Of a stretch of DNA of 64,000 bases, positions 4,485 through 30,517 are shown piece after piece (positions within the stretch are counted from its first letter, which is position 1; each line of letters starts with the position of its first letter). Both the position numbers and the translations under genes were made by a program. The DNA is taken from contig CALDDQ010000006.1 of the NCBI GenBank assembly GCA_937936785.1, positions 68,739-132,738 of the forward strand, in the 5' to 3' direction. Origin of the DNA: an uncultured Endomicrobiia bacterium. Its GTDB lineage: Bacteria; Elusimicrobiota; Endomicrobiia; DTEH01. A model generated the notes under the pieces. The model was not told where the DNA came from. It saw only the letters and a list, made by a program, of their open reading frames with translations, and did not search any database.

Positions 4485-6284
4485 TTAATTCCTATCAATC
4501 TTTAACAACTCTATAAATGTCTCCTTAGGAATATCCACATTACCAAGCGATTTCATTTTTTTCTTACCTTCTTTTTGTTTCTCTAAAAGTTTACGTTTTC
4601 TGGTAATATCCCCTCCATAACATTTTGCAAGAACGTCCTTCCTCATTGATTGAATATCTTCTCGAGCAATAATTTTATTTTGGCATTTTACCTGTAATGG
4701 AATTGTAAACATATGTCTGGGAATAGTTTTTTTCAACTTTTCTAAAATTTTAACTGCCAAATTATGTGCTTTATCTTTATGTACTATCAATGAAAACGAA
4801 TCTACTGGTTCGTTGTTTACTAAAACTTCTAATTTAACCAAATCTGCCTCTTTGTAACCTATCTGCTCATAATCAAATGATGCATAACCTTTTGACACAG
4901 ACTTTATAGCATCAAAAAATCCTACTATAAGTTCTGCTAATGGAATTTCAAATACTACTATTACACTGTTCTCATCTATAAAATTTTGGTCTAATACCTC
5001 AGCTCTAAACAGTTTGCATGTCTCTATCACATTACTTAAATATGCAAGCGGAGTTACAACTGTAGTTTTGGTTATTGGTTCATAAATTTTTTCTATTTCA
5101 AACGGTTCTGGAAAATCAGATGGGTTATCAACTAAATGTTCTTTCTTATCAATTTTAATTACTTTATATTCTACATTTGGTATCGTAACAATTAAATCTA
5201 AATTGTATTCCCGTTCCAATCGTTCTTTAACAATATCCATATGTAAAGACCCTAAAAATCCACAATGAAATCCTCCACCTAAAACACGTGAACTGGTAAC
5301 TTTATATGATAATGAATAGTCCATTAAATGCAATTTTTGTAGTGCCATTTTTAAATCGTCATAATCTTTCGGACTTAGAGGATAAACTCCAGCAAAAACG
5401 TATGGTTTAACTTCTGGAGCAACAATTTTTGGTAACAAATTTTTTTCAATCTGTGGTTCAGTAATTATATCTCCAATTTTTATCTGATGAATATCTTTTA
5501 CTCCTGCTACAATATACCCAACTTCTCCTGCATAAAGTTCTTCTTTAGAAACAAAATTTAATTTTATATGTCCTAATTCTTCCACTTTATAAATTTTCTG
5601 TCCTTCAGCAGTGCTAAACTTAAATTGCATATCTTTAGAAATCTTTTTACTCAAAACTTTAACAAACATAACCACTCCCCTGTATGAGTCATAATACGCA
5701 TCAAAAACTAATGCTGACATAAAATTTATATCAAAAATTTTTGACCCGGGCAATTGTTTTATTATAGTTTCTAGTATTTTTTCTACATTAATACCTGTTT
5801 TTGCACTAATTGGTATAGGTTCAATTTCAATATTTAACGATTCCTGTATCTGCAAAATTGTTCTTTCAACATCAGCCCCAGGTAAATCAATTTTGTTTAT
5901 TACAGGAATAATTTTTAACCCAGATTTCTTAGCCAAAAAAGTGTTCGCCAAAGTTTGTGCTTCAACACCTTGCGATGCGTCTACTACCAAAATTGCTCCT
6001 TCACATGCGTTCATTACACGCATAACTTCATAAGTGAAATCTACATGACCTGGTGTATCAATTAAGTTTAAAATATAATCTTGACCATTGTAACTATATT
6101 CCATGCGAATAGTTTTTGACCTAATAGTAATTCCTCGTTCACGCTCTAATTCCATGCTATCAAGAAGTTGTTCTTGCATTAAACGTTTAGGAACTGTATT
6201 GGTAAGTTCTAACAATCTATCGGCTAAAGTAGATTTTCCATGATCTATGTGTGCTATTATACAAAAATTGCGTATCGTGTTCAT
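4485..6284 (-). CDS. lepA: elongation factor 4 (LepA)
   Basis: 599 aa. GTPase motifs 'AHIDHGKSTL' and 'DTPGHVDF', and LepA-specific C-terminal domain length. Confidence 0.9.
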   Translation of the reverse strand: MNTIRNFCIIAHIDHGKSTLADRLLELTNTVPKRLMQEQLLDSMELERERGITIRSKTIRMEYSYNGQDYILNLIDTPGHVDFTYEVMRVMNACEGAILVVDASQGVEAQTLANTFLAKKSGLKIIPVINKIDLPGADVERTILQIQESLNIEIEPIPISAKTGINVEKILETIIKQLPGSKIFDINFMSALVFDAYYDSYRGVVMFVKVLSKKISKDMQFKFSTAEGQKIYKVEELGHIKLNFVSKEELYAGEVGYIVAGVKDIHQIKIGDIITEPQIEKNLLPKIVAPEVKPYVFAGVYPLSPKDYDDLKMALQKLHLMDYSLSYKVTSSRVLGGGFHCGFLGSLHMDIVKERLEREYNLDLIVTIPNVEYKVIKIDKKEHLVDNPSDFPEPFEIEKIYEPITKTTVVTPLAYLSNVIETCKLFRAEVLDQNFIDENSVIVVFEIPLAELIVGFFDAIKSVSKGYASFDYEQIGYKEADLVKLEVLVNNEPVDSFSLIVHKDKAHNLAVKILEKLKKTIPRHMFTIPLQVKCQNKIIAREDIQSMRKDVLAKCYGGDITRKRKLLEKQKEGKKKMKSLGNVDIPKETFIELLKIDRN

Positions 6285-8059
6285 GAAGTTTTATTATTTT
6301 TGTTTTCATCTTCAGATAAAATTTTTATAACATCAGACCTATCATTAGTATTAAAAATTTTGTTAACCAACTCTTTTGCATCTGATAATACAAATCCACG
6401 AATTAATTTTTTTAATTTTAACACCAAAGCTGGTGGCACACTAAATTCGTCCAGACCCATACCTAATAAAACTTTTGTAAACGAAATATCAGATGCCATT
6501 TCACCACACATTGATACATGTTTTCCTTTACTATGTCCTGCATCTATAACATGTTTCATTAATCTTAGTACAGACAAATGTAATGGATCATACATATCTG
6601 CTACATTTTCGTTCATTCTGTCTACAGCAAGTGTATATTGTATTAAATCGTTTGTCCCTATGGACAAAAAATCTGCTTCCTGGGCTATGATATCACTTGT
6701 TAAAGCTGCTGAAGGTAATTCTATCATAGCACCAATTTTTATGTTCTGGTCAAAATTTATATTTCTATTTAACAATTCTTTTTTTACTTCTTCAACAACT
6801 TCTTTTGCAAGTCGAAATTCTTGAACACTAGATATTAACGGAAACATTATCTTCGTATTTTTAAACACAGATGCTCGCAAGATTGCTCTGATTTGTGTTT
6901 TGAACATATCTTTATATTTAAGAGCAAGACGAATACCACGTAAACCTAATGCCGGAGATGTTTCAGGTAACAACCCTTCTAACCCAAGCTTGGATAATTT
7001 ATCTCCACCTATATCTACTGTCCTAAAAATTATTGGATAAGGACTTATTTTCTCTGCAGTATAATAATATTTTTCAAACAATTCATCTTCTTTTGGTAAT
7101 TCATCTCTTTCAATATACATAAACTCTGTTCTAAAAAGTCCAACACCTTCTGCTCCTGATTTTAATACCTCTTCAATTTCTTGTGGAGAATCAAGATTGC
7201 ATACTATACTAACTTTATGACCATCAAGAGTTTCAGCAGGTAAATCTTTTAATTTTATCAAATACTCTCTTTCTTTTACTATTTCGTTGTGTTTCTTAGC
7301 GTACTTATTTAAAGTATTTTCATCAGGATTTATAATTACTGTACCTGTGTTTCCTTCAACAATAATATCTTGACCATCTTCTACAATTTCAGTAATATTT
7401 TTTAACCCAACAACTGCAGGTAATTGTAATCCTTGTGCTACAAGCGAAATGTGTGACGTTTTACTACCTATGTCTACTACAAAACCTGCACATTTTTTTT
7501 CTTTTAACACAACTGTATCCGATGGACTTAGTGTATGAGCTATAACTATCATATTTGGTTGTATATCAGACAAACTTTTTCTTTCTTTTCCTAAAATATT
7601 TCTTAATAGACGACGACCAACATCTCTTATATCAGATATCCTGCCTTTAAAATATTCATCCTCTATTTGTTCAAAAGATTGTATTATTCTGTTTAGTCCT
7701 ACACTAACAGCATACTCTGCTGTTACCAAATCTTCTTCTATCATTCTTACAACATCTCTTGTAAGCAGCGGATCATCTACCATACCTACATAAACATCTA
7801 TCAACAAAGCATGCTGTTTCCCTAAAGCTTTTAATAATCTCTCTTTTGCTGATAATAATTCTTTTTTAGTTTTTTCTAAAGATTCTTTATATAATGCAAC
7901 TTCTTTTTTAACATTTTCTTTTGAAATTTTTTTTAGTGGAATATATAAATCAGCTTCACGTTCAACTAAAAATGCTTTGCCTATTGCAATACCTTCACTT
8001 GCAGCTATACCTTTAAAAATTTTTTGAACTGGTTTATTTTCTTTCATTTTGTTGTTCAC
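6281..8059 (-). CDS. ptsI: phosphoenolpyruvate-protein phosphotransferase (PTS enzyme I)
   Basis: 592 aa. Active-site His region 'GSKTSHISLVAQGLQLPAVVG' and PEP-utilising motif 'GLFRTEFMY'. Its start overlaps the HPr stop by 4 nt. Confidence 0.9.
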   Translation of the reverse strand: MNNKMKENKPVQKIFKGIAASEGIAIGKAFLVEREADLYIPLKKISKENVKKEVALYKESLEKTKKELLSAKERLLKALGKQHALLIDVYVGMVDDPLLTRDVVRMIEEDLVTAEYAVSVGLNRIIQSFEQIEDEYFKGRISDIRDVGRRLLRNILGKERKSLSDIQPNMIVIAHTLSPSDTVVLKEKKCAGFVVDIGSKTSHISLVAQGLQLPAVVGLKNITEIVEDGQDIIVEGNTGTVIINPDENTLNKYAKKHNEIVKEREYLIKLKDLPAETLDGHKVSIVCNLDSPQEIEEVLKSGAEGVGLFRTEFMYIERDELPKEDELFEKYYYTAEKISPYPIIFRTVDIGGDKLSKLGLEGLLPETSPALGLRGIRLALKYKDMFKTQIRAILRASVFKNTKIMFPLISSVQEFRLAKEVVEEVKKELLNRNINFDQNIKIGAMIELPSAALTSDIIAQEADFLSIGTNDLIQYTLAVDRMNENVADMYDPLHLSVLRLMKHVIDAGHSKGKHVSMCGEMASDISFTKVLLGMGLDEFSVPPALVLKLKKLIRGFVLSDAKELVNKIFNTNDRSDVIKILSEDENKNNKTS

Positions 8060-9097: not shown

Positions 9098-9721
9098 TTA
9101 TTCTTCCATAAAATGTGCAATTCCTATACCAACTCCTATCGCAGGTAAAATATAAATTATGTCTCTAAAGTTTTCTTTCACAGGACAATATTGTATTAAA
9201 ACACAAACATTTTTTACAATAAAATAAATTATTGGTAAAACTATCAAATAAAATAATATTGTTCGTAAAAAAGATACAACTATACCATAATAGACTAACA
9301 AATTTATTCTTTTCTCTACAAATTCTGCTTTTGCAGTATCTACCCAACTTAAATACATATTATTTAGCGTTCTTATCTGAATATCAGTAAATTTATAAAC
9401 TAAACTAAATATTATTCCAAAAAATATTGACATCGGCATTCCTAAATCGTTGCATTCTCTTATATTAGCAAATACTACTGACAAAATTGTTGCTGCAGTA
9501 GCATCCGGCGGTATTTTTATCCCTATAGGTATAACAGATATATACATCAACTCTAAAATTACTCCTATCATCAAACCAGTTTGTGGTGAATTAAAAAAAT
9601 ATCCCACTATAGGTCCTACAACAATAGGTCTTGAAAACATAAACTGGCCAAAAACCATCGTGTCTAAATGCACCACACCACTAAATATCGCTAATAACAA
9701 AAATTTTAATGTAATGTTCAT
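9098..9721 (-). CDS. PTS mannose-family EIIC component
   Basis: 207-aa polytopic membrane protein, sitting immediately 5' of the EIID gene in the conventional IIC-IID order. Confidence 0.65.
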   Translation of the reverse strand: MNITLKFLLLAIFSGVVHLDTMVFGQFMFSRPIVVGPIVGYFFNSPQTGLMIGVILELMYISVIPIGIKIPPDATAATILSVVFANIRECNDLGMPMSIFFGIIFSLVYKFTDIQIRTLNNMYLSWVDTAKAEFVEKRINLLVYYGIVVSFLRTILFYLIVLPIIYFIVKNVCVLIQYCPVKENFRDIIYILPAIGVGIGIAHFMEE

Positions 9722-11829
9722 TTTATATTAATTTGTATCTCAAAAAAATTTTTTTCATTAGGTCCCAAAGTTATTTTATAATTTGGTGCTACACATACTC
9801 CTTGATATGTGCGCTCAAAACCACTCTCTGAAATAGAAATTGTTTCTATTGGAAATATCCAAAAGTTTGTTTTTTTTGAAACTAATATTTCTACCCTATA
9901 TCCATTTTCATTATCTTTAGAAATCCATTTTTCAGTATAAATTTCGCCTAAATTGTTTTTTTCAGGATATGAAATCATTAAATTATTCTCTGACATAAAC
10001 CATAATTCAACTTTTTTATCGGAATTATTTTTTATCATATATTTACAAGATATATTTGGAGCAAATTTATACTCTTTAACAACTTCTATACTTATTCTTT
10101 CATTATTTAACCAAACATTACCCTTACGGGATAGTTTTGTAACAAAATTTTTTTCATCTTTTGCAATTATCTCATATGGTTCCAAAACAAAATCTCCAAC
10201 CTCACCATATTGACATCGGACAAAATCGTTATATTTTGTATCCGGATGTAAAAAATGGTCCAAAAAACTATACCTGTTATACCAATCATAAAATAAGTAT
10301 TGACTTAAATTTTTCTCTTTGCTTAATACTAAATCATGTATTGTTTTAGTTTCGTTTGAGTTAAAAACATTTTGTTTTTTATCATATTCAATAAGTTTTC
10401 TATGGTATGCTTCTTTTCTACGAGTAAGCACGTTTAACAAATTTTTATTATAATCTTTTAAATCTAACTCTATAACACTTCCACCATATGAAGGCTTTAT
10501 TATTGCCTCGTAACTTATATTTTCTATAACAATTTCATCAAGACCATCCTTGTCATAATCTATTATAGACACTGTATCTTTTTTATACAACTCTTTCTCT
10601 GCTTTTATTAAATGTTCATAGATAGCTTCTCGCAAATGTGGAAGATACAAACCACCAAAAATACCATGCCAATAAGCACAGTTACACTGAGCTTTATATA
10701 AATTTGTAGTTATTTGTTCCATATTTAATTGGTTAAAAATCGGTTTTGTTTTCTCTTCACCACCTTTTACATTAGCATTATAATTTTTTATTTTTTTTAT
10801 CTTATTAACTTTATCGCTAACAAACAACATTTTCTTATGCATATTATTTGATTCTGAATATTTTGTCAAAAAATTTTTCCAATACCCACCACGCATAAAT
10901 TGTAAATATTTTTCTTTGTTTGGATTATGTTCAAATTCTTTCAAAATATCTTCAAATATTTCTTGAGTTTTTTGTGGCAAAGTCCATTCTCCCATTTCAA
11001 AATATGAAGCTGTAGGCAAATATATTCTTCCTTTTGGAAGTTGTACTTTTATAAATTCGCTATATGTCATTGTAGAAAGCCAATTTTGGTTTTCACAAAT
11101 TTTATTTAAAAACTTTTTTAACCATCCGTCTTTATAAACATGATCATATGTTTTTGGCCAACCACCAAACTTTTCTCCATCATCACACATAGTTAACCCT
11201 ACAACTTCGTTTTTATCACCAAACGAAAATTTTTTAAAAAATTCTATAACTTCTTCTACTAACCGAAACGGAATATAATATCTAAGCATCTGCGATATTG
11301 GGAAAATATATAATACACAACCTTCTTCTTCTGTAACATAATAACCTGTCAACTCCCGTTTTTCTAAACCAGCTGAGTAGAAATGATAATCATCAACTAA
11401 TGTATATTTTATTCCTGCACTAACAATATCTTTAACAATATTTTGTTCCCAAATACGTTCTGTAAGCCAAAGACCTTCAGGATTAACTCCAAAGGTTTTA
11501 AACAAAAATTTGTTCATCATTTTTATTTGGTTTATTCTATCTTTTTGTGATATTGAAGATAATATCGGTTCATAATATCCGCCAGATATCAATTCTATTT
11601 GTCCACGTTCAACCATTTCTTTAACTATTTTTATAAACTCGGGATGTCTATCGAAAAAGTAATCCCACAAAATACCAGAACAATGCATAGAAAATTTTAT
11701 TTGTGGATATTCGTACAATAAATCTATAAATGGTTTATATGAATAGTTATATGTATTTTCTATCACATGCTCAAAATTGCCAACTGGTTGATGATTATGT
11801 ATTCCAAACAAAAATTTTACCTGACTCAT
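9718..11829 (-). CDS. glycoside hydrolase family 57 alpha-glucan enzyme (4-alpha-glucanotransferase/amylopullulanase-like)
   Basis: 'FGIHNHQPVGNF' is the GH57 hallmark. The nucleophile region 'GLWLTERIWEQ' and the acid/base region 'CDDGEKFGGWP' are both present. 703 aa with a C-terminal beta-sandwich. 4-nt overlaps with IIB upstream and IIC downstream. Confidence 0.85.
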   Translation of the reverse strand: MSQVKFLFGIHNHQPVGNFEHVIENTYNYSYKPFIDLLYEYPQIKFSMHCSGILWDYFFDRHPEFIKIVKEMVERGQIELISGGYYEPILSSISQKDRINQIKMMNKFLFKTFGVNPEGLWLTERIWEQNIVKDIVSAGIKYTLVDDYHFYSAGLEKRELTGYYVTEEEGCVLYIFPISQMLRYYIPFRLVEEVIEFFKKFSFGDKNEVVGLTMCDDGEKFGGWPKTYDHVYKDGWLKKFLNKICENQNWLSTMTYSEFIKVQLPKGRIYLPTASYFEMGEWTLPQKTQEIFEDILKEFEHNPNKEKYLQFMRGGYWKNFLTKYSESNNMHKKMLFVSDKVNKIKKIKNYNANVKGGEEKTKPIFNQLNMEQITTNLYKAQCNCAYWHGIFGGLYLPHLREAIYEHLIKAEKELYKKDTVSIIDYDKDGLDEIVIENISYEAIIKPSYGGSVIELDLKDYNKNLLNVLTRRKEAYHRKLIEYDKKQNVFNSNETKTIHDLVLSKEKNLSQYLFYDWYNRYSFLDHFLHPDTKYNDFVRCQYGEVGDFVLEPYEIIAKDEKNFVTKLSRKGNVWLNNERISIEVVKEYKFAPNISCKYMIKNNSDKKVELWFMSENNLMISYPEKNNLGEIYTEKWISKDNENGYRVEILVSKKTNFWIFPIETISISESGFERTYQGVCVAPNYKITLGPNEKNFFEIQINIK

Positions 11830-12353
11830 TTGTTTGCCTCGTTTTTTACCGTTTTTTCTAAATCTAAAACTAAATCATTTAATTTAAGTTTTTTGTCATC
11901 TGGTAAAATATAATACTCCATAACTATTTTTTTTGAAATCAATTCTTTTAATAACTCTATATCTTTCATGTCTAAACACAATGCACGATATACTTGTTTT
12001 TTGTTACCACAATGACGTAATCCACCTATGTTTATTGTGTTTAACAGAGTTTTTTCTGAAAAACGAAGTACATTATTTACAAGAACATTTAGTTCTTGTA
12101 AAGAAGATATTAAAATCAACACATTTTCTTTCTCATACTTTTTTTCAACAATTTTTTTTGCTACCGTTTCAATATTATCACACTCAAGTGCTACATGTGG
12201 TGGTACAGAAAGTTTATATAAAGTCTTTTGCATTATATCACACGCAATTGTGTCGGAACAAATTGTTATCATAGAAATTTTTAACGGTTTTATCCAACCT
12301 TCAATAACTTGTCCATGGACTAGTCTATCATCTACCCTAATTATATAGCTCAT
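11826..12353 (-). CDS. PTS mannose-family EIIB component
   Basis: 'RVDDRLVHGQV' is the EIIB-Man phospho-His signature. Confidence 0.8.
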   Translation of the reverse strand: MSYIIRVDDRLVHGQVIEGWIKPLKISMITICSDTIACDIMQKTLYKLSVPPHVALECDNIETVAKKIVEKKYEKENVLILISSLQELNVLVNNVLRFSEKTLLNTINIGGLRHCGNKKQVYRALCLDMKDIELLKELISKKIVMEYYILPDDKKLKLNDLVLDLEKTVKNEANK

Positions 12354-12772
12354 TTGTTTGAATTAAGTTTTTTTACAAATTTTTCTTTCACATTGATTAT
12401 GCTATTCCTGCCAGAAGAAATTACTTTTTCTACATATTTGTTGATATCATCTATTTGTTCTCTTGCAGTAATAGCTGTAATTAACATGTATAAATTTACT
12501 CCACTAACTACAAAAATATTGTTTAAACTTTGGCATAACATTAATGATACATTGCACGGTGTGCCACCAAGCATGTCTGTCAATAAAATCATATATTCAA
12601 CTTTCATATCCACCATTTTTTGTTTTATTTTATCACACAAAGAACTTAAATTTAACTCGCTCATTACAGAAATTCCTTCTACCATATGTTTTGTCCCAAC
12701 TATAGAAAATGCTGTATTAACAAGCTCTTCTGCAAATTTCTCATGACTTAAAACTATTATACCTATTTTCAT
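12350..12772 (-). CDS. PTS mannose-family EIIA component
   Basis: 'GIIVLSHEKFAEEL' (His10 region) and 'LTDMLGGTPCN' match EIIA-Man. Confidence 0.75.
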   Translation of the reverse strand: MKIGIIVLSHEKFAEELVNTAFSIVGTKHMVEGISVMSELNLSSLCDKIKQKMVDMKVEYMILLTDMLGGTPCNVSLMLCQSLNNIFVVSGVNLYMLITAITAREQIDDINKYVEKVISSGRNSIINVKEKFVKKLNSNK

Positions 12773-13746
12773 ATTAACATTTTTATTTTTTCTGCTATTT
12801 TTATAGAATCATGTCGCAAAAAACGGCCTATTTTTTTTCTTGGGACAAAATCGCCACAAATTAATTTTAATCCCATGTTTTTTAAAATATTAAAATCATT
12901 CTCTACTGGAAAAGATTTTTCTTTTGCATAATAATGCAAATGTTTATCTGGTATTTTTCCACAATTAATAATCAAATAATCAAATTTAAATTCATTTTTA
13001 CAGTGTTCATATACTTTGTTAACATGCATAGAAGCAGTATAATTATCTGTCTCACCAGGTTGTGTCATAATATTACATATAAAAACTTTTCTTGCATTTG
13101 ATTTCTTTATTGCATTAACGATACCATTAAACATTAACGGTGGAATTAATGACGTAAACAATGAACCGGGACCTATTATCAATAAATCACAACATAAAAT
13201 ATTTTTTTCAACTTCAGGATAATGTTTAACTTGTTTTGGTATAATTTTTAATCTTTTTATTGGAATTTTTGATTTAGAAATTTTACTTTCTCCTTTAATA
13301 ACTTTTCCATTAACTAATTCTGCTACTAAATTTGCAGATTGTAATGTAACCGGCAAAACTTTTCCTTTAATGGATAAAATATCTGTTATAGCAGATAAAG
13401 CATTTTGAAAACCACCTAAAATATCTGACATTGCTATTAACAATAAATTACCTAACGAATGTCCACCAACCTCTGGATTTCCTCTTTTTATTGGAAACCT
13501 ATAATTAAATAATTCAGACAATAAATCTTCTTTATCCGATAACGCAACTAAACAATTACGAATATCTCCCGGCGGTACCACACCAAACTCTTTTCTCAAC
13601 CTACCAGAACTGCCTCCATCATCCATTGTAGTAACTATAGAAACAATATCTACATTTTTTATTGTTTTAATACCACGCAACAAAGTTGCTAAACCTGTCC
13701 CACCACCAATTGTAACTATCTTTTTTTTATTCATAATAAGTGACAT
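12769..13746 (-). CDS. yvcK: gluconeogenesis factor YvcK/GlmR (CofD-like, UDP-sugar binding)
   Basis: 325 aa. N-terminal 'IGGGTGL' and CofD-like fold motifs. Conserved partner of RapZ. Confidence 0.8.
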   Translation of the reverse strand: MSLIMNKKKIVTIGGGTGLATLLRGIKTIKNVDIVSIVTTMDDGGSSGRLRKEFGVVPPGDIRNCLVALSDKEDLLSELFNYRFPIKRGNPEVGGHSLGNLLLIAMSDILGGFQNALSAITDILSIKGKVLPVTLQSANLVAELVNGKVIKGESKISKSKIPIKRLKIIPKQVKHYPEVEKNILCCDLLIIGPGSLFTSLIPPLMFNGIVNAIKKSNARKVFICNIMTQPGETDNYTASMHVNKVYEHCKNEFKFDYLIINCGKIPDKHLHYYAKEKSFPVENDFNILKNMGLKLICGDFVPRKKIGRFLRHDSIKIAEKIKMLI

Positions 13747-16035: not shown

Positions 16036-16554
16036 TTAATATGTTTCTATTTGTGCCACTTTTACAAAATTATTTTTTTTATAAACTATATTTAACTTTT
16101 CCGTCTCTTTATCAATAAAAACAAAAAAATTTTCACGCCCTTCTTCAAACATTTTTATAGCATCCGCTCTAATCATCTTCTGAGCATAAATAACAGTCTC
16201 TTCACTATCAAAACTATCATATTGTTTGTCTACAAATATTTCACTAACTTTTTTTCTATGTTTCTTTAAAGACACAATTTTTTCTTTATGCCTTATCAAC
16301 AATTCTTTTATCCTGTTTGCTGACTTATCTATCGCTACATATAAATCTTTATCCACTTCTTTTATTTTAAATATTTTTTTGTTTGAATACAATATAACCT
16401 CTGCACTATGTCTATACTTATTTACCTCCAAAATTACCTGCACAGAAATTATATTATGGACATACTTTTCCATACCACCAAAACGTTTATTAACATAATC
16501 TGAAATCGCATCTGTAATTTTAACATGTCTACCTACAATTTTAATGTTTTCCAT
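16036..16554 (-). CDS. hpf: ribosome hibernation promoting factor (long HPF / sigma-54 modulation protein family)
   Basis: 172 aa. N-terminal RaiA/HPF domain 'IKIVGRHVKITDAISDYVNKRF' plus a C-terminal dimerisation extension. Confidence 0.8.
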   Translation of the reverse strand: MENIKIVGRHVKITDAISDYVNKRFGGMEKYVHNIISVQVILEVNKYRHSAEVILYSNKKIFKIKEVDKDLYVAIDKSANRIKELLIRHKEKIVSLKKHRKKVSEIFVDKQYDSFDSEETVIYAQKMIRADAIKMFEEGRENFFVFIDKETEKLNIVYKKNNFVKVAQIETY

Positions 16555-16568
16555 AAACAGATCTCCTT

Positions 16569-17300
16569 TTATAACTTAAACTTTTCTCCTAAATAAATTT
16601 TCCTTGCTTGGTCATCATTTACTAACTGTTGCGCATCACCATGAATTAATATGTCTCCACGATAAATTATGTATGCTCTATCAACTATTTCTAATGTTTC
16701 TCTTACATTATGATCTGTTAACAAAATACCAAGCCCACTTTTTTTTAATTTTAAAACTATAAGTTGTAATTCTTCAATTGTTTTTGGATCAATACCAACA
16801 AACGGTTCGTCTAATAACAAATATTTTGGGTTTGAAACTAATACTCTGGCAATTTCACATCTTCGTTTCTCGCCACCAGATAATGTATACGCTTTTTGTT
16901 TTCTTAAATGAACTAAGTTAAACTCATTTAACATTTTTTCTAAAACTTCATTTTTTTGTTTGTTTAAACTATAACAGATTTCTACTGCTGCAAAAATGTT
17001 TTCTTCCACAGTAAGTTTTCTAAATATTGATGGTTCTTGAGATAAATACCCAATACCTTTTCTTGCTCTAAAATAAACTGGCATATTAGTAACATTTTGT
17101 CCGTCAACAGAAATTGTCCCATTGTCAATTTTTACCAAACCCATTATTGAATAAAAAAATGTTGTTTTACCAGCTCCATTAGGACCTAACAATCCTACAA
17201 CTTCTCCAGGATTTATGGAAATAGAAATATTGTTTAATACTAACTTATGTTCATAAGATTTACTAACACTTTCAGCTATTATGCTCATTTTTAAACACAA
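16569..17300 (-). CDS. lptB: LPS export ABC transporter ATPase LptB
   Basis: Walker A 'GPNGAGKTT', signature 'LSGGEKRR', Walker B 'LLLDEP'. 243 aa. Sits between lptA and hpf. Confidence 0.85.
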   Translation of the reverse strand: MCLKMSIIAESVSKSYEHKLVLNNISISINPGEVVGLLGPNGAGKTTFFYSIMGLVKIDNGTISVDGQNVTNMPVYFRARKGIGYLSQEPSIFRKLTVEENIFAAVEICYSLNKQKNEVLEKMLNEFNLVHLRKQKAYTLSGGEKRRCEIARVLVSNPKYLLLDEPFVGIDPKTIEELQLIVLKLKKSGLGILLTDHNVRETLEIVDRAYIIYRGDILIHGDAQQLVNDDQARKIYLGEKFKL

Positions 17301-24612: not shown

Positions 24613-26607
24613 TTAATTAAACGAATAAATTCTTTCTGGTAACAATGTTTTCTCTACTAAAATTTTTTTCTTGATAAGTTTGGCTATTGATTCTTTAATA
24701 ACATTTTCCTCAGGATATAAGTATTTTAAAAGGTTAAATTTAAAATCTCGTCCTATAGCAGAAGCTATCTGCAAAACTTCTTTTGTTTTAATATCTAACT
24801 GATCTACTTGACACATTACTGCTACATAAATTTTTTGTGGGATATCAATCTTATTTATTTGTCCACTTATTGAAAACCCATCACCATTATTCAATATTGC
24901 TCTTGTTTCTATTAAATTGTTCACCAAAGCTTCTACAAACAATGGTACCCCTTCAGCGTTTTGTAGTATTATATCTTTGACATTTTTTAATATCATATTT
25001 TCTCCCAAAAGATTATCCAACAACTTGTTTGAACAACCAATTGTCATTTCAGGCAACATAATCTCTCTAAAATAATTTTTTTTGCTCCAAGGAATTTGTG
25101 TATCAGGCAATGATGTTGTTATAACCAACAACTGTTTTGTCTCACAAAGATCTACTATAGACTCGAACAACGTTAGCAAAGTTGCATTTGCATAATTTAA
25201 GTCTTCTAAAAAAATTATTAGTGGTTCATTCTTTAATATTTCTACCAGAACTTGTTTTATTCCTGTATTAACAAATTTATTTTCTTTAACATCATATACA
25301 ACAACCATTGATCCTTGTTGTCCATAAGGTAAACATCTAAATTCAAAATATCGTATTCCTAATTGTTGTACATATTTTGATAGTTCATACATCAATCTTG
25401 ATTTCCCAAAACCATACTGTCCTGTAATAGATACTGCATAACCATTGTGTGAATTTTCTACAGAAACATCTTTTATCCTATCTATAAAATTTTTAGTAAA
25501 ATTATATTCTCGTTCAGGAATAATGTATGGCGAAATTTTATTATTAACAGATATAAAATTATATCTCAAATATTTTGCTCCTTTTAATTCATATATGTTT
25601 AAAGCATCCTGTTTACCTTTCACATTTATCGATGGAAGTTTATAAAACACAAACTCGTTCTTAGAATATTTGTAAGTTTCTTCAGAAATAACAATCTGGT
25701 TTGGTAGAGCAATTGTTTGCAACCTTGATGCCACATTAACAGTATCTCCCATGACAGTATACTCACTTCTCGTTTCAGAACCCATTTCACCAGCAACAAC
25801 TTCACCAGTATTTATTCCAATACGAATTTGTAATTTTTGTGGTAATTCAGCATGTGTTTTATTAAACTCTTGTAATTTATATAACATCATTAATGCAGTT
25901 TTAAGTGCACGCTGCGGATCATCCTCGTGAGTTATTGGTATCCCAAAAAGTGCCATTATAGCATCTCCAATAAATTTGTCAATAACACCACCATACATAT
26001 TTATTGCTTCAACAAAACCTTTAAAACATTCGTTTACAACTTTTTTAACATCTTCAGGATCCATCTGTTCAGCCATAGAAGTAAATCCTGTCAAATCTGC
26101 AAATAAAACAGTAACAATTCGTCTTTCACCTTCGGAAAATTTTGGGCCATAAATTATTTTATCTAACATTTCTTTTGGCAAAAATTTTTGTAATTGAGCA
26201 ATTCGTGCTTCAATAATTTTTTCTTCTCTTTGAACACGGCGCAAAGCTACTTTTACTCTTGCAATTAATTCACTAGAGTTGAACGGTTTTGTAACATAAT
26301 CATCAGCTCCTGTCTCTAACCCTTTAATTTTATTATCACTAGAACCTAAACTGGTACACATTATTACTGGAATGTGCATTGTTGTAGAATCGTTTTTTAT
26401 AATTCTTAGCACGTCCACTCCTTCCATATCAGGTAACTGCCAATCAAGAACAACAAGATCTGGTTGAATCTCTTTTACTTTTTTTATTCCTGTTTCGCCA
26501 TCATCTGCAGATGAAACATCGTATCCTTCATCATTTAAAAGTTCCACAATTAATCTTTGAATATCTATCTCATCATCAATAACAAGTATTTTAAATTTTG
26601 TGCCCAT
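24613..26607 (-). CDS. receiver (REC) - class III adenylate/guanylate cyclase - STAND/AAA ATPase fusion protein
   Basis: REC: 'ILVIDDE...DLVVLDWQLPDMEG'. Cyclase: 'VTVLFADLTGFTSMAE' and 'GDTVNVASRL'. ATPase: P-loop 'GQYGFGKSRL' and 'AEGVPLFVEAL', typical of cyclase-associated ATPase domains. No C-terminal TPR/HTH domain. Confidence 0.8.
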   Translation of the reverse strand: MGTKFKILVIDDEIDIQRLIVELLNDEGYDVSSADDGETGIKKVKEIQPDLVVLDWQLPDMEGVDVLRIIKNDSTTMHIPVIMCTSLGSSDNKIKGLETGADDYVTKPFNSSELIARVKVALRRVQREEKIIEARIAQLQKFLPKEMLDKIIYGPKFSEGERRIVTVLFADLTGFTSMAEQMDPEDVKKVVNECFKGFVEAINMYGGVIDKFIGDAIMALFGIPITHEDDPQRALKTALMMLYKLQEFNKTHAELPQKLQIRIGINTGEVVAGEMGSETRSEYTVMGDTVNVASRLQTIALPNQIVISEETYKYSKNEFVFYKLPSINVKGKQDALNIYELKGAKYLRYNFISVNNKISPYIIPEREYNFTKNFIDRIKDVSVENSHNGYAVSITGQYGFGKSRLMYELSKYVQQLGIRYFEFRCLPYGQQGSMVVVYDVKENKFVNTGIKQVLVEILKNEPLIIFLEDLNYANATLLTLFESIVDLCETKQLLVITTSLPDTQIPWSKKNYFREIMLPEMTIGCSNKLLDNLLGENMILKNVKDIILQNAEGVPLFVEALVNNLIETRAILNNGDGFSISGQINKIDIPQKIYVAVMCQVDQLDIKTKEVLQIASAIGRDFKFNLLKYLYPEENVIKESIAKLIKKKILVEKTLLPERIYSFN

Positions 26608-26623
26608 ATTTTTTTTATCAATA

Positions 26624-27367
26624 TTAAACTAATTTTTTAATATTGTCCAACAACTCTTTTTCAGAAAGTGGTTTTGTAAAATATTCTGACGCACCGTATA
26701 ACAACGCTTTTTGTCTGTATCCTTTTAAATCATAACCAGTAATAACTATTATTGGTATATGTTGTGTAACCTTGTCACGTTTCAAAATTTTCATCACAGA
26801 AAAACCATCCATACCAGGCATATGTAAATCTAACAAAATCAAATCTGGCAATTTTTGTTTTGCATATGTTACACCATCTGGTCCATTATCTACTATTTCT
26901 ACCATATAATTTTCCGAACCTAAGTATTCTTTTATATAACCAGACGTATCCTTTTCATCATCAATAATTAATACATGTTTCTTTTTATCAGCAGTTTTTT
27001 CAAGACCATTCTCAACATTTTTTATACTTTTATACAACTCACCAAACTCTATCGGCTTTGACAAAAAATCCACTGCACCAAGATAATATCCCCTTTCTTT
27101 CTGAATACCTTCAACTATTGAAATAAATATAACTGGAATATTTTGTGTTTCAGGATCTTTTTTTAACATCTCTAAAACTTGAAACCCGTTCATCTGTGGC
27201 ATCATTATGTCTAAAGTTATTAAATCAGGTTTGAATTGTTTAACTTTTTTTGATGCTTCATCTCCACTATATGCAACTTCTACATCATATCCTTCAAATT
27301 CTAAGTTGATTTTTATCAAATTTGCAATTGAATGTTCGTCATCTACTACCAAAATTTTTTTTATCAT
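26624..27367 (-). CDS. tandem-receiver response regulator (REC-REC, no output domain)
   Basis: Two CheY-like domains, each with DD...D...K residues: 'ILVVDDEHS...LITLDIMMP' and 'VLIIDDEKD...LILLDLHMPGMDG'. Confidence 0.8.
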   Translation of the reverse strand: MIKKILVVDDEHSIANLIKINLEFEGYDVEVAYSGDEASKKVKQFKPDLITLDIMMPQMNGFQVLEMLKKDPETQNIPVIFISIVEGIQKERGYYLGAVDFLSKPIEFGELYKSIKNVENGLEKTADKKKHVLIIDDEKDTSGYIKEYLGSENYMVEIVDNGPDGVTYAKQKLPDLILLDLHMPGMDGFSVMKILKRDKVTQHIPIIVITGYDLKGYRQKALLYGASEYFTKPLSEKELLDNIKKLV

Positions 27368-27390
27368 AAACTAAATTCTCCGTTAGTTTT

Positions 27391-29046
27391 TTATCTTTTA
27401 AAAAATTTTGTTAATGTATCGTATAATTGCATTATTTCTTCTTTTGAAACTTTTTTTATAAGATTGTTTATTTTACCTTTTTTTTCATTAAAAACTTGTT
27501 CGTTTACAAAAAGTTTCATCAATGGAACTTTTTCTATAATATGGTCCAACTTTAACAAAATATCTTTATTAACTTTGTTCTCCAATATTAAAATTATTGC
27601 CTTAGATTCTGGAGTTATTTTAATGTTTTTATTCGGAAATAACACTTCAATAACACTTTTTGAAACAAGTTTACTTGCTAAATATAATCCTTCATCTGTA
27701 ACATGTAAATTTTCGTCTGTACTAACAATTTTTTCTTTATCAGGTTGAATCTCATCATCTCTAATTTCTGTTTCTTTTATTTCTTGAACAAATTCTGTAT
27801 TTATCTGCTTTTGTTCTGCTTCTTTTTGTTCTTGTACTACATTTTCAATTTCTTTATCATGATGAGAAATATCTTCTACTAAATTTTCATTTTTAAGTTC
27901 TGGAACAATTTTTTCTTCTTGTATACTTAACTCTTCTATAATTACTTGTTGATTGCCAATATCTGTGTTTTTTTCAATTGTTGGGTAATCAACAGGTTTT
28001 TCTATCTTTTGTTCTTGTTTATCTAAACCTTGTGGTTCTGACGTTTTTTTTAAATTACTTTGTTCAATTGATTCACCTGTTATATTTTGCATTTTATCTT
28101 CATTTTTAGTATCCAAAAACATTGTAAAATCCGGAGGTAATAATGAAGTTTCAACACTTGAACTAATATTTTCTGTTTCTTTATTAGTTATAACTTCTTC
28201 TACTGAATTATCATCTAAAATATTTTTTTCTTGTATATTCTGTTCCACAATATCTTGTTGTTCTATAACAGACATCTTATCTTCATCTCTTTTTTCATAA
28301 AATATTTCGTTAGTTGTTTCAGATGGTTGATTATCATGAATTTTTGGAATAATTTCTTCCAACACAGATAATTCTTCTGGTATTACATTGAAATCATCAG
28401 TAACAACAACAGGTTCATTTTTTATTAAACTATTATCAATTACTGACTGTTCAGTATTTGCTACAAATTGTTCATTGTTTGAACTAACAAAAAAATTTTT
28501 TTCTGATTGAATTTGATCTTGACCTTTTGGTTCAGGGACAAAATTTTCTGTTTCTAATTCTACAACTTTATTCTCTTGGTCAGGTTTTGTTTTTTCAATA
28601 ACATCTTTAGATTCTTTAGAAATAGTTTCTGTATTTATAGATTCTTGCATACTTGATTGCTCTAAACCTTTTTTATTAATATCACCTAAAACTTTTTTTA
28701 CTACAGCAACAATTTTTTCTTCTTCATATGGTTTCTGAATAAAATCTTTTGCATCAAATTTTATTAGCATTTGCATTTCTTGATCAAATTTTCTACCGGT
28801 AACCATAACAACAGGAATATTTCTTGTTTCCTGTATACTTTTTAATTTTTGTAAAAGTTCATAACCAGTCAAAAAAGGCATATTGTTATCTGTAATAATC
28901 ATATCAGGTTTTTTTTCTTTTGCAACGACAACTGCTTCTTCTCCATCTGATGCTTCTAAAACTTCTATGTCATAAGGTTCTAAGTATATTTTTACAAGGT
29001 TTCTTAAATCTTCTTCATCTTCAGCAATTAAAACTTTTTTTGTCAT
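27391..29046 (-). CDS. response regulator with N-terminal REC, about 330-aa acidic low-complexity linker and an uncharacterised C-terminal domain
   Basis: REC: 'VLIAEDEEDL...DMIITDNNMP'. Then an E/Q/K/N/D-rich disordered segment. C-terminal about 110 aa of unknown fold. Confidence 0.65.
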   Translation of the reverse strand: MTKKVLIAEDEEDLRNLVKIYLEPYDIEVLEASDGEEAVVVAKEKKPDMIITDNNMPFLTGYELLQKLKSIQETRNIPVVMVTGRKFDQEMQMLIKFDAKDFIQKPYEEEKIVAVVKKVLGDINKKGLEQSSMQESINTETISKESKDVIEKTKPDQENKVVELETENFVPEPKGQDQIQSEKNFFVSSNNEQFVANTEQSVIDNSLIKNEPVVVTDDFNVIPEELSVLEEIIPKIHDNQPSETTNEIFYEKRDEDKMSVIEQQDIVEQNIQEKNILDDNSVEEVITNKETENISSSVETSLLPPDFTMFLDTKNEDKMQNITGESIEQSNLKKTSEPQGLDKQEQKIEKPVDYPTIEKNTDIGNQQVIIEELSIQEEKIVPELKNENLVEDISHHDKEIENVVQEQKEAEQKQINTEFVQEIKETEIRDDEIQPDKEKIVSTDENLHVTDEGLYLASKLVSKSVIEVLFPNKNIKITPESKAIILILENKVNKDILLKLDHIIEKVPLMKLFVNEQVFNEKKGKINNLIKKVSKEEIMQLYDTLTKFFKR

Positions 29047-29077
29047 TATTTTACCTCATAAACTTGATTTATTGTAT

Positions 29078-30517
29078 TTAAATTCTTACACCATCTTTTG
29101 GTACATACTGTTTAGGCAATGTAAACCAAAACGTAGTCCCAACATCAACTTCGCTTTCAACCCAAATTTTTCCTCCATGACCTTCTGTTAACCCTTTTGC
29201 AATTGACAAACCTAAACCAGTCCCTTTTGCACCTTTAACCTTTTTTCTGTGTTCAGAAACCTGTTCAAACTTGCTAAAAATTTTTCCTAAAGATTCCTTT
29301 GGTATTCCTATCCCTGTATCTGCAACACCTATTTGAACATACTCTCCTTTGTCAATATATTTTAATGTAATTTTTCCACCTTCAGGAGTAAATTTAAGTG
29401 CATTACTTAACAAATTTGTTATAATTTGTCCAACCCTATCTTTATCTATCATAAGTTTAGGTGCATCTGGTGGAACTTCGGAAATTAAAGTAATCTTTTT
29501 ATCTTCAGCAACAGATTTCATCAATGTCATAATTTCGTTTGCTGGTTCATACAAACTTACTAATTCAGGTTTTATTTCCATCATACCAGCTTCGATCTTT
29601 GCTAAATCTAAAATATCATTTATAAACCTGCCTAACCGACTTGTGTTATTACTAACTATTGTTAAAAACTCTTTTTGTCTTGGAGAAATTTCACCTGCTC
29701 TACCTTCTAACATTAAGTTAATATAACCTTTTATTGCAGTTAGTGGAGATCTTAGTTCATGTGTGACTGAAGACATAAAATCTTCTTTCATTCTGTCAAG
29801 TTCTTTTAATTTCTGTGCCATTAAATTAAAATCTTTTGCTAATTCGCCAAGTTCATCTTTACTTTTTACATTAATTACAGTATCTAACTTTCCTTCACCA
29901 ATTTTGGCTGCTCCCTGAGCTAGTTTTTTTATTGGATTTGTCATTGTCTGAGCTAAAATAAATGAACCCACTAATCCTAATATCAAAGCTATTGCTGCAA
30001 CAATCAAAATCCTGTCTCTAGTTTTGTTTAACGCAACTAAAACATCCTTGTCAATAACTTCCTGCAAAAGACCTAATCGCACATACCCTACTATATTATT
30101 TTGAATTCTTACTGGCACAGAAATGTCTAAAACTTTTTTATTTTGATTTTCCCAAGAATTTATTGCAACAGAATTTGTATTATAAATTTTATTCCAAACT
30201 TCATCATTAATTTCAACACCCATCTGTTCAAAATTTGTATGAGCATAAACTATTCCAAGAGATGAAATAAACATTGCATACGAAATCTCAGGTTTTTTTT
30301 TGATCAATTTAATATAATTTAATAGCACTAACTCGTCTGAAATAATTATTGATTCTTTCGCAATCTCAGACAACGATTCTGCATCACGAATGCGAGACTC
30401 TTGTTTTTCTTTTATTAATGTTTGTCGTTCAAAAATAAATAACACTACCGCTACTAAAAGTATTACTGTTATAACAAGAGAAACTGCAGTTAGACCAAGT
30501 TTTGTCCTTAATTTCAT
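29078..30517 (-). CDS. sensor histidine kinase (TM - HAMP - HisKA - HATPase_c)
   Basis: H-box 'SSVTHELRSPLTAI', N-box and G-boxes 'GTGLGLSI', and two N-terminal TM segments flanking a periplasmic domain. Confidence 0.85.
   Translation of the reverse strand: MKLRTKLGLTAVSLVITVILLVAVVLFIFERQTLIKEKQESRIRDAESLSEIAKESIIISDELVLLNYIKLIKKKPEISYAMFISSLGIVYAHTNFEQMGVEINDEVWNKIYNTNSVAINSWENQNKKVLDISVPVRIQNNIVGYVRLGLLQEVIDKDVLVALNKTRDRILIVAAIALILGLVGSFILAQTMTNPIKKLAQGAAKIGEGKLDTVINVKSKDELGELAKDFNLMAQKLKELDRMKEDFMSSVTHELRSPLTAIKGYINLMLEGRAGEISPRQKEFLTIVSNNTSRLGRFINDILDLAKIEAGMMEIKPELVSLYEPANEIMTLMKSVAEDKKITLISEVPPDAPKLMIDKDRVGQIITNLLSNALKFTPEGGKITLKYIDKGEYVQIGVADTGIGIPKESLGKIFSKFEQVSEHRKKVKGAKGTGLGLSIAKGLTEGHGGKIWVESEVDVGTTFWFTLPKQYVPKDGVRI

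Follow-up and report, generated by a model that had tools for sequence, protein, structure and literature searches.

A GH57 4-alpha-glucanotransferase-type gene embedded in an hprK/ptsHI phosphotransferase system cluster of an uncultured Endomicrobiia bacterium and its relatives

4-alpha-Glucanotransferases of glycoside hydrolase family 57 (GH57) are amylomaltase analogues, which disproportionate the alpha-1,4-glucan chains of glycogen or maltodextrin. For the bacterial phosphotransferase system (PTS) a single link to glycogen is well known, namely HPr of Escherichia coli, which binds and regulates glycogen phosphorylase, GlgP (PMC11046441). The incomplete PTS clusters of Xanthomonas and Brucella, which carry hprK and a mannose-family IIA gene, are regulatory and do not serve transport (PMC6916182, PMC2937029). 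More generally, the hprK/ptsN/rapZ-linked PTS of Gram-negative-type bacteria is widely held to be regulatory, although beyond a few proteobacteria hardly any of its outputs have been identified. In this study, we analyzed a stretch of 64,000 nucleotides (nt), referred to as the window, from an uncultured Endomicrobiia bacterium of the Elusimicrobiota (GenBank assembly GCA_937936785.1, contig CALDDQ010000006.1, positions 68,739 to 132,738 of the forward strand), in which a GH57 gene lies between the IIB and IIC genes of a mannose-family PTS operon. In genome papers on Endomicrobia this operon is read simply as a glucose uptake system (PMC11257099). We consider it probable that the GH57 gene encodes a glucan-disproportionating enzyme co-expressed with an hprK/ptsN/rapZ/yvcK regulatory PTS supra-operon, by which the turnover of storage glucan is tied to PTS carbon status.

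The GH57 gene, its two junctions and the PTS genes of the operon are located in the window as follows (lengths in amino acids, aa).

9718..11829, - strand: GH57 4-alpha-glucanotransferase-type gene, 703 aa, ATG start; barrel, helical middle and C-terminal beta domains; catalytic residues E124 and D217
11826..11829, - strand: ATGA overlap of the IIB stop and the GH57 start, read directly; IIB ends with ...AAC AAA TGA, ATG in 'aATGa'
9718..9721, - strand: ATGA overlap of the GH57 stop and the IIC start, read directly; GH57 ends with ...ATA AAA TGA, ATG in 'aATGa'
12350..12772, - strand: PTS EIIA, mannose family, 140 aa; PF03610; phospho-acceptor His10 conserved
11826..12353, - strand: PTS EIIB, mannose/sorbose family, 175 aa; PF03830; RVDDRLVH13GQV corresponding to the ManX IIB phospho-His motif
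9098..9721, - strand: PTS EIIC, mannose family, short and divergent, 207 aa; PF03609
8332..9081, - strand: PTS EIID, mannose family, short and divergent, 249 aa; PF03613
8056..8328, - strand: HPr, 90 aa; His15 and Ser46 (counted in the translation)
6281..8059, - strand: Enzyme I (EI), 592 aa

The GH57 protein has the three-domain architecture of GH57 4-alpha-glucanotransferases, with matches well over the gathering cut-offs to PF03065 (Glyco_hydro_57, 2e-50), PF09094 (middle domain, 4e-32) and PF09095 (C-terminal domain, 2.6e-63). By sequence, its sole relative of solved structure is the 4-alpha-glucanotransferase of Thermococcus litoralis (TLGT, PDB 1K1W; E=4e-152, residues 1-681 aligned). 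A preliminary description of the window had credited the protein with both catalytic residues, and this was borne out, as E124 in WLTE124RIW aligns with the TLGT nucleophile E123 and D217 in CDD217GEKFG with the TLGT acid/base D214. All five conserved sequence regions (CSRs) of the family are kept (HNHQP, GQIELIS, WLTE124RIW, CDD217GEKFG and AQCNCAYWH). The fingerprint of 4-alpha-glucanotransferases, Lys at logo position 23 (CSR-4) and Trp-His at positions 35-36 (end of CSR-5) (PMC6037648), is found in the alignment as K220, W387 and H388, and the acceptor-site residues matching Y181, F185 and W219 of the Pyrococcus sp. ST04 enzyme (PSGT) are also kept in the alignment (PMC9582752). The sugar-phosphate product suggested earlier does not agree with this fingerprint, which is that of a 4-alpha-glucanotransferase and not of a phospho-glycosidase.

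The N-terminus (MSQVKFLFGIHNHQP...) corresponds to the first barrel strand and aligns from residue 1 of the cytoplasmic archaeal TLGT, and neither the sequence nor this alignment revealed a signal-peptide-like segment there. A secreted enzyme was rejected because of this alignment, and the earlier assignment as a cytoplasmic alpha-glucan-type enzyme held. A pseudogene, or a '4AGT-like' protein without catalytic residues, was rejected as well, since both catalytic residues and the conserved regions are intact. Judged by its sequence, the protein is an intact, cytoplasmic GH57 of 4-alpha-glucanotransferase type.

One position of CSR-5 deserves separate mention. Here the window protein has Cys384 (codon at 10678-10680) in place of TLGT Asp354 (AQCNCAYWH vs AQCNDAYWH). 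The Asp is present in the characterized archaeal enzymes, is not one of the two catalytic residues, and its position is not listed among the fingerprints in the GH57 review (PMC6037648). In an alignment of 161 sequences, comprising 159 bacterial homologues, the window protein and TLGT, Cys occupies this position in 131 and Asp in 22, and the occurrence of Cys is uncorrelated with PTS linkage. The Cys marks a large bacterial group of GH57 glucanotransferases, in which no sampled sequence comes from a characterized enzyme. In addition, the window protein has a variable insertion of ~30 residues after the middle domain when compared with TLGT, and a secondary Pfam match to GH38 (1.3e-10), a family to which GH57 is distantly related. 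Compared with TLGT (1K1W/1K1X/1K1Y), AmyA of Dictyoglomus thermophilum and PSGT, it thus shares length class, the three domains, conserved regions, fingerprint and acceptor aromatics, and differs by the Cys at TLGT Asp354, by its host, a mesophilic low-GC member of the Elusimicrobiota, and by a gene placed in a PTS operon instead of a maltodextrin/glycogen cluster.

The GH57 gene is part of a co-directional array, entirely on the - strand, with the order kdsD, kdsC, lipid A acyltransferase, lptC, lptA, lptB, hpf, ptsN, hprK, rapZ, yvcK, IIA(Man), IIB, GH57, IIC, IID, HPr, EI, lepA, radA, aroC. From kdsD to aroC, neighboring genes either overlap or are at most 27 nt apart. The GH57 ATG is preceded, at a distance of 7 nt, by a GAGG. 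The 4-nt overlaps with IIB upstream and IIC downstream had already been reported and were read directly in the sequence; the yvcK/IIA, IIA/IIB, HPr/EI and EI/lepA junctions are alike. Since such overlaps are usual throughout the array, they point to a single transcription unit and not to a peculiarity of GH57. No terminator-like sites were found in the intergenic gaps of the array, Rfam and tRNA scans gave no match in or near the operon, and a promoter scan told little in DNA this rich in AT, with 118 promoter-like sites vs 115 expected. Taken together, the gene arrangement indicates that the array including GH57 is one transcription unit. The same arrangement is found, identically, in an independent assembly (Logan ERR9287890). 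By co-transcription and by start and stop codons overlapping those of its neighbors, the synthesis of GH57 would be locked to that of the PTS proteins.

Upstream of the IIA gene, the part of the array that belongs to the conserved backbone contains the following genes.

12769..13746, - strand: YvcK/CofD-related UDP-GlcNAc-binding protein, 325 aa
13727..14617, - strand: RapZ, 296 aa
14595..15545, - strand: HPr(Ser) kinase/phosphorylase HprK, 316 aa
15553..16011, - strand: PtsN, EIIA-Ntr type; PF00359
16036..16554, - strand: ribosome hibernation factor hpf, directly after lptB, no rpoN between
16569..17300, - strand: lptB-type ABC ATPase, upstream end of the conserved backbone

The operon composition given in the preliminary description, IIA-IIB-GH57-IIC-IID-HPr-EI with hprK, ptsN, rapZ and yvcK at the same locus, was confirmed by Pfam. 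Membership of the PTS proteins in the mannose family follows from matches over the gathering cut-offs to PF03610, PF03830, PF03609 and PF03613. H10 of IIA and H13 of IIB align with the phospho-His residues of solved IIA and IIB structures (the ManX His10 and His175 sites). IIC and IID are genuine, although divergent and short, homologues of ManY and ManZ, for which the Pfam profiles are covered only in their N-terminal two-thirds. For the characterized substrate subfamilies (ManXYZ, Aga, sorbose and others), NCBIfam scores are far under the curated cut-offs, e.g., 54 bits vs 340 for IIC and 108 vs 293 for IID, and as every one of these cut-offs is missed, no substrate is assignable to IIC/IID of the window. 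With their phospho-acceptor residues kept, the PTS proteins of the operon look functional. RapZ binds amino-sugar metabolites and YvcK is UDP-GlcNAc-binding by its NCBIfam name, so that the whole unit resembles a hub at which carbon is allocated to either envelope precursors or storage.

Compared with the rpoN-linked regulatory PTS of Xanthomonas (XC_1304-1310) and the incomplete PTS of Brucella, the window cluster has the same backbone order after lptB, the same presence of HprK, an HPr with both His15 and Ser46 and a mannose-family IIA (PMC6916182, PMC2937029, PMC3162934). It differs by the lack of rpoN, by the presence of yvcK, IIB, IIC and IID, and by GH57 between IIB and IIC, a gene unreported in those papers. 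Only 14 nt part lptB from hpf (16554-16569), and the absence of rpoN at this site fits the listing of Elusimicrobium minutum as being without sigma-54 (Francke et al., PMC3162934).

To see how the GH57 gene is placed elsewhere, 160 loci with 36-62% identity to the query were taken from the matches listed, half of them in species-representative genomes and half on metagenome contigs (80 each), and homologues of the neighboring genes were located in them by tblastn with the window proteins. The loci are a sample and not a census, and a few contigs occur in both sets (e.g., L004 = L100), so that the counts are indicative. Named homologues of the window GH57 are almost all from Elusimicrobiota/Endomicrobiia, the best non-self match having 69% identity, and both gene order and overlaps are the same in the closest relatives (69%, 58% and 57% identity). 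The synteny with PTS genes assumed in the preliminary description was found throughout the sampled Elusimicrobiota, as IIA-IIB-GH57-IIC-IID-HPr-EI is common to all eight genome loci as far as the contigs reach (L001, L002, L004, L005, L006, L007, L012, L041). It was also found in a Firestonebacteria genome (L069) and an unclassified genome (L074). The relatives of ~58% identity (L166, 4745-6068; L168, 3709-5061; L086) have no hprK, ptsN being followed directly by rapZ, and keep IIA-IIB-GH57-IIC-IID-HPr-EI; part of the clade can thus do without control via HPr Ser46.

Within 1.5 kb of GH57, a PTS-cluster gene was present at 61 of the 160 loci, among them genomes of Firestonebacteria, Krumholzibacteriota, NC10, Planctomycetia and the FCB group. 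The commonest arrangement, with IIB upstream and IIC downstream, accounted for 37 loci; the inferred IIB to GH57 junctions are mostly -14 to +60 nt, and GH57 and IIC overlap in 27 of the 37. Overall, GH57 has at least seven different upstream neighbors among the PTS-linked loci. As to IIC and IID themselves, both are apparently fused in one 541-aa open reading frame (ORF) in the unclassified genome (L074, 12183-13808), and at a Krumholzibacteriota locus (L037, 4217-5305) a 362-aa protein containing an IID domain is all that is left of them.

In several arrangements, the sampled flanks, which extend to 7-10 kb where the contigs are long enough, showed no IIB, IIC or IID. Their gaps are <110 nt, except for the insert in L095/L096.

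rapZ-IIA-GH57-HPr: L056 and L064 (NC10/Methylomirabilis)
rapZ-IIA-GH57-HPr-EI: L101 and L108; also L095 and L096, in which a branching-enzyme-like gene separates IIA from GH57
ptsN-GH57-HPr-EI: L090 and L119
yvcK-GH57-HPr-EI: L061 (Planctomycetia)
hprK-GH57-HPr-EI: L157

Another layout occurs in the FCB group (Ignavibacteria, Zixibacteria, Bacteroidota), where a MlaD-domain gene precedes GH57 (L010, L022, L033, also L009, L038, L043, L047 and L052). At three FCB-group loci, hprK is directly upstream of mlaD in the order lptB-rpoN-hpf-hprK-mlaD-GH57, which is a second, different form of linkage to the rpoN/hprK region. The permease-centered view taken in the preliminary description is not supported, as in several lineages GH57 stands between IIA, PtsN, YvcK or HprK and HPr-EI without IIB/IIC/IID in the sampled flanks. 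Since GH57 is kept beside hprK and ptsH-ptsI while the transporter genes vary, its association is with the general or regulatory PTS and not with transport.

Further genes for glucan metabolism accompany GH57 in some lineages. One Elusimicrobiota locus (L004, 4754-10004, the same contig as L100) has the order rapZ-DUF4912-GH57 branching enzyme-IIA-IIB-second GH57 branching-enzyme-like gene-GH57 4-alpha-glucanotransferase-IIC-IID, and a branching-enzyme-like gene is directly upstream of the 4-alpha-glucanotransferase gene in L095/L096 (5352-6998), L091 and L115. Non-PTS homologues of GH57 are found in clusters of the 4-alpha-glucanotransferase gene, a GalT-like gene, DUF4912 and a GH57 branching enzyme, near which a fusion of NDP-sugar pyrophosphorylase and phosphoglucomutase is located. 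The glycogen-type contexts of both linked and unlinked homologues place the family in storage alpha-glucan metabolism.

The PTS backbone also exists without GH57. In a reverse survey starting from IID (homologues with 33-40% identity), six loci were inspected, i.e., Malonomonas rubra, a Myxococcales metagenome-assembled genome and four contigs. All six have lptB-rpoN-(hpf)-ptsN-hprK-rapZ-IIA-IIB-IIC-IID-HPr-EI with contiguous IIB and IIC and with rpoN kept, and GH57 and yvcK are absent from each of these delta-proteobacterial-type (Desulfuromonadales/Myxococcales-type) clusters. The gene order and the subfamily of short IIC (230-240 aa) and IID (246-280 aa) proteins, as in Malonomonas rubra DSM 5091, are those of the window; the lack of GH57 and yvcK and the direct contact of IIB and IIC set these clusters apart. 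Occurring without GH57 in other lineages, the backbone is known and widespread, and GH57 is a lineage-restricted addition to it.

Regarding its age, PTS-linked GH57 sequences fall into several clades following organismal groups in a neighbor-joining tree. At linked loci, pairwise distances of GH57 correlate with those of its neighbors (EI r=0.90, IID 0.93, IIB 0.91, HprK 0.86, LepA 0.84; Mantel p<=0.001 for each), and with mean distances of 0.53 for GH57 and 0.48 for EI, both are about equally conserved. The GC content of the GH57 gene (0.26-0.29) equals that of its flanks. A recent insertion or horizontal transfer was rejected on the grounds of this composition, the gene order common to relatives and the correlated distance matrices. 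The preliminary description had named absence from relatives together with inactivating substitutions as what would speak against it; the gene is present in all sampled relatives and the catalytic residues are unchanged. By these comparisons, GH57 is an old, vertically inherited resident of the operon under purifying selection.

GH57 is a long-standing member of an lptB-hpf-ptsN-hprK-rapZ-yvcK-IIA(Man)-IIB-[GH57]-IIC-IID-ptsH-ptsI supra-operon in Elusimicrobiota and several other phyla, and in our preferred reading its functional partner would be the general or regulatory PTS (HPr, EI, HprK, IIA-Man) and not the permease. Remodeling or mobilization of storage glucan may then be coordinated with carbon status as sensed by EI, HPr and HprK. 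Such coordination would be achieved via shared expression and possibly by direct interaction with HPr or IIA, as an analogue of the control of glycogen phosphorylase by HPr in E. coli. The latter serves as a conceptual model, in which a general PTS protein has control over an enzyme that breaks down storage glucan. It differs in the target, GlgP vs a GH57 transferase, and in the kind of evidence, the E. coli link being biochemical and that of the window consisting of genomic linkage alone. The E. coli genes concerned are not known to be clustered with pts genes. A functional link between PTS and alpha-glucan turnover, as already proposed in the preliminary description, is supported by the cross-phylum synteny and the recruited glycogen genes; the mechanism of coupling we only infer, namely that the GH57/PTS adjacency was selected for co-regulation, with HPr, IIA or HprK acting on the enzyme directly or via shared expression only.

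Several observations weigh against this reading. At about 60% of the sampled loci the GH57 homologue has no PTS linkage, and the six delta-proteobacterial-type backbone clusters all function without a GH57 gene. Within the 64-kb window, no other glycogen genes, including those for glycogen synthesis, were found among the scanned ORFs (shorter ORFs at 47-64 kb were partly scanned). The replacement of TLGT Asp354 by Cys384 is a change of possible consequence for activity. A search for residues specific to the PTS-linked homologues, e.g., a phospho-acceptor, returned only Y85 vs F, which is no signal, and the sequence of GH57 thus gives no hint of a phospho-acceptor or a binding surface dedicated to the PTS. 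Finally, a needed gene kept in a rarely rearranged super-operon could be neutral with respect to its neighbors.

The last point leads to neutral hitch-hiking, in which a housekeeping glycogen gene would have been inserted once, in ancient times, into a very stable super-operon and its position inherited passively, without functional meaning. Unrelated housekeeping genes (kdsD, kdsC, lptCAB, lepA, radA, aroC) are equally tightly joined in the array, GH57 distances track LepA as well as the PTS genes, as predicted by simple vertical descent, and GH57 has no PTS-specific residues. However, the adjacency outlasts the independent loss of genes on both sides (IIB upstream, IIC-IID downstream), is found in several phyla and with the various upstream neighbors, more glycogen genes joined the same cluster in some lineages, and the FCB-group genomes have their different hprK-mlaD-GH57 layout, so that we regard this explanation as doubtful. 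In a further reading, the phosphorelay might act directly on GH57 as its target or partner. GH57 would be bound or phosphorylated by HPr (as His~P or Ser~P) or by the mannose-type IIA/IIB, and the phosphoenolpyruvate (PEP)/pyruvate and fructose bisphosphate/ATP state, sensed by EI and HprK, would switch glucan remodeling independently of sugar transport; this we judge to be unlikely. If it were true, a conserved PTS-to-glycogen switch would exist in Elusimicrobiota, NC10, Planctomycetota and other little-studied phyla.

Two further explanations involve the permease. Metabolic coupling would mean that GH57 frees glucose or short maltodextrins and that the glucose is phosphorylated with PEP by the mannose-type IIAB/IICD, at the inward face or after leakage and recapture, in place of a glucokinase. 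The four components IIA, IIB, IIC and IID are intact, phospho-His sites included, in the commonest arrangement GH57 stands precisely between IIB and IIC and its start and stop codons overlap theirs, and many Endomicrobiaceae without glucokinase are said to depend on this PTS for glucose-6-phosphate (PMC11257099). Yet GH57 is still beside HPr-EI in lineages where the sampled flanks showed no IIB/IIC/IID and the cluster encodes no EII to phosphorylate glucose (an EII elsewhere in the genome is possible), a characterized GH57 4-alpha-glucanotransferase seldom frees glucose but mainly maltotriose and longer products (PMC9582752), and the branching enzymes in the same cluster need no sugar kinase, which makes this coupling quite unlikely. 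Alternatively, the mannose-type PTS might import and phosphorylate an alpha-linked oligosaccharide whose product is cleaved by GH57. GH1/GH4 phospho-glycosidases and the GH38 enzyme MngB (mngA-mngB) act in this way on PTS-phosphorylated sugars and depend on a permease. Like the hydrolase genes of such operons, GH57 is located inside an EII gene set, and it has the distant kinship to GH38 noted above. Unlike them, it is of glucan-transferase type with the full 4-alpha-glucanotransferase fingerprint and conserved acceptor subsites, unlinked homologues with the same residues are found in glycogen clusters, the linkage persists without IIC/IID in the sampled flanks, and no residue marks the PTS-linked enzymes. 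The window operon was hence not assigned to the PTS/phospho-glycosidase type, and we consider such a hydrolase highly improbable.

As far as the literature on GH57 with PTS, HPr kinase or Elusimicrobia was searchable, no description of the arrangement was found, and entries for GH57 or glycogen are likewise missing from the supplements of the Endomicrobia genome paper. Neither the enzyme family nor the PTS backbone is new by itself; what was not found in the literature searched is the conserved embedding of a GH57 glucanotransferase, sometimes with branching enzymes, in an hprK/ptsHI cluster. This matters for the metabolic reconstruction of Elusimicrobiota, for which the operon currently stands as a glucose uptake system. 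GH57 beside ptsH-ptsI across several phyla, even without permease genes, is a concrete candidate for an output of the regulatory PTS, and if co-expression indeed couples both, the PTS-glycogen link represented by E. coli HPr-GlgP would be extended to other enzymes and phyla.

Apart from the operon, the window contains further features on the - strand. At 33145-46209, an ORF of 4354 aa with fibronectin-III, FG-GAP, DUF2341 and Big_5 repeats and a repeat resembling the N-domain of purple acid phosphatases probably encodes a very large surface or adhesin-type protein. A signaling set at 24613-30517 consists of a response regulator-adenylate/guanylate cyclase fusion (664 aa), a receiver-domain protein (551 aa) and a Cache-HAMP histidine kinase (479 aa). 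In the part from 1 to 24000, for which the profile was calculated, the GC skew on the + strand is uniformly and strongly negative (-0.16 to -0.47), and the long genes are all on the - strand.

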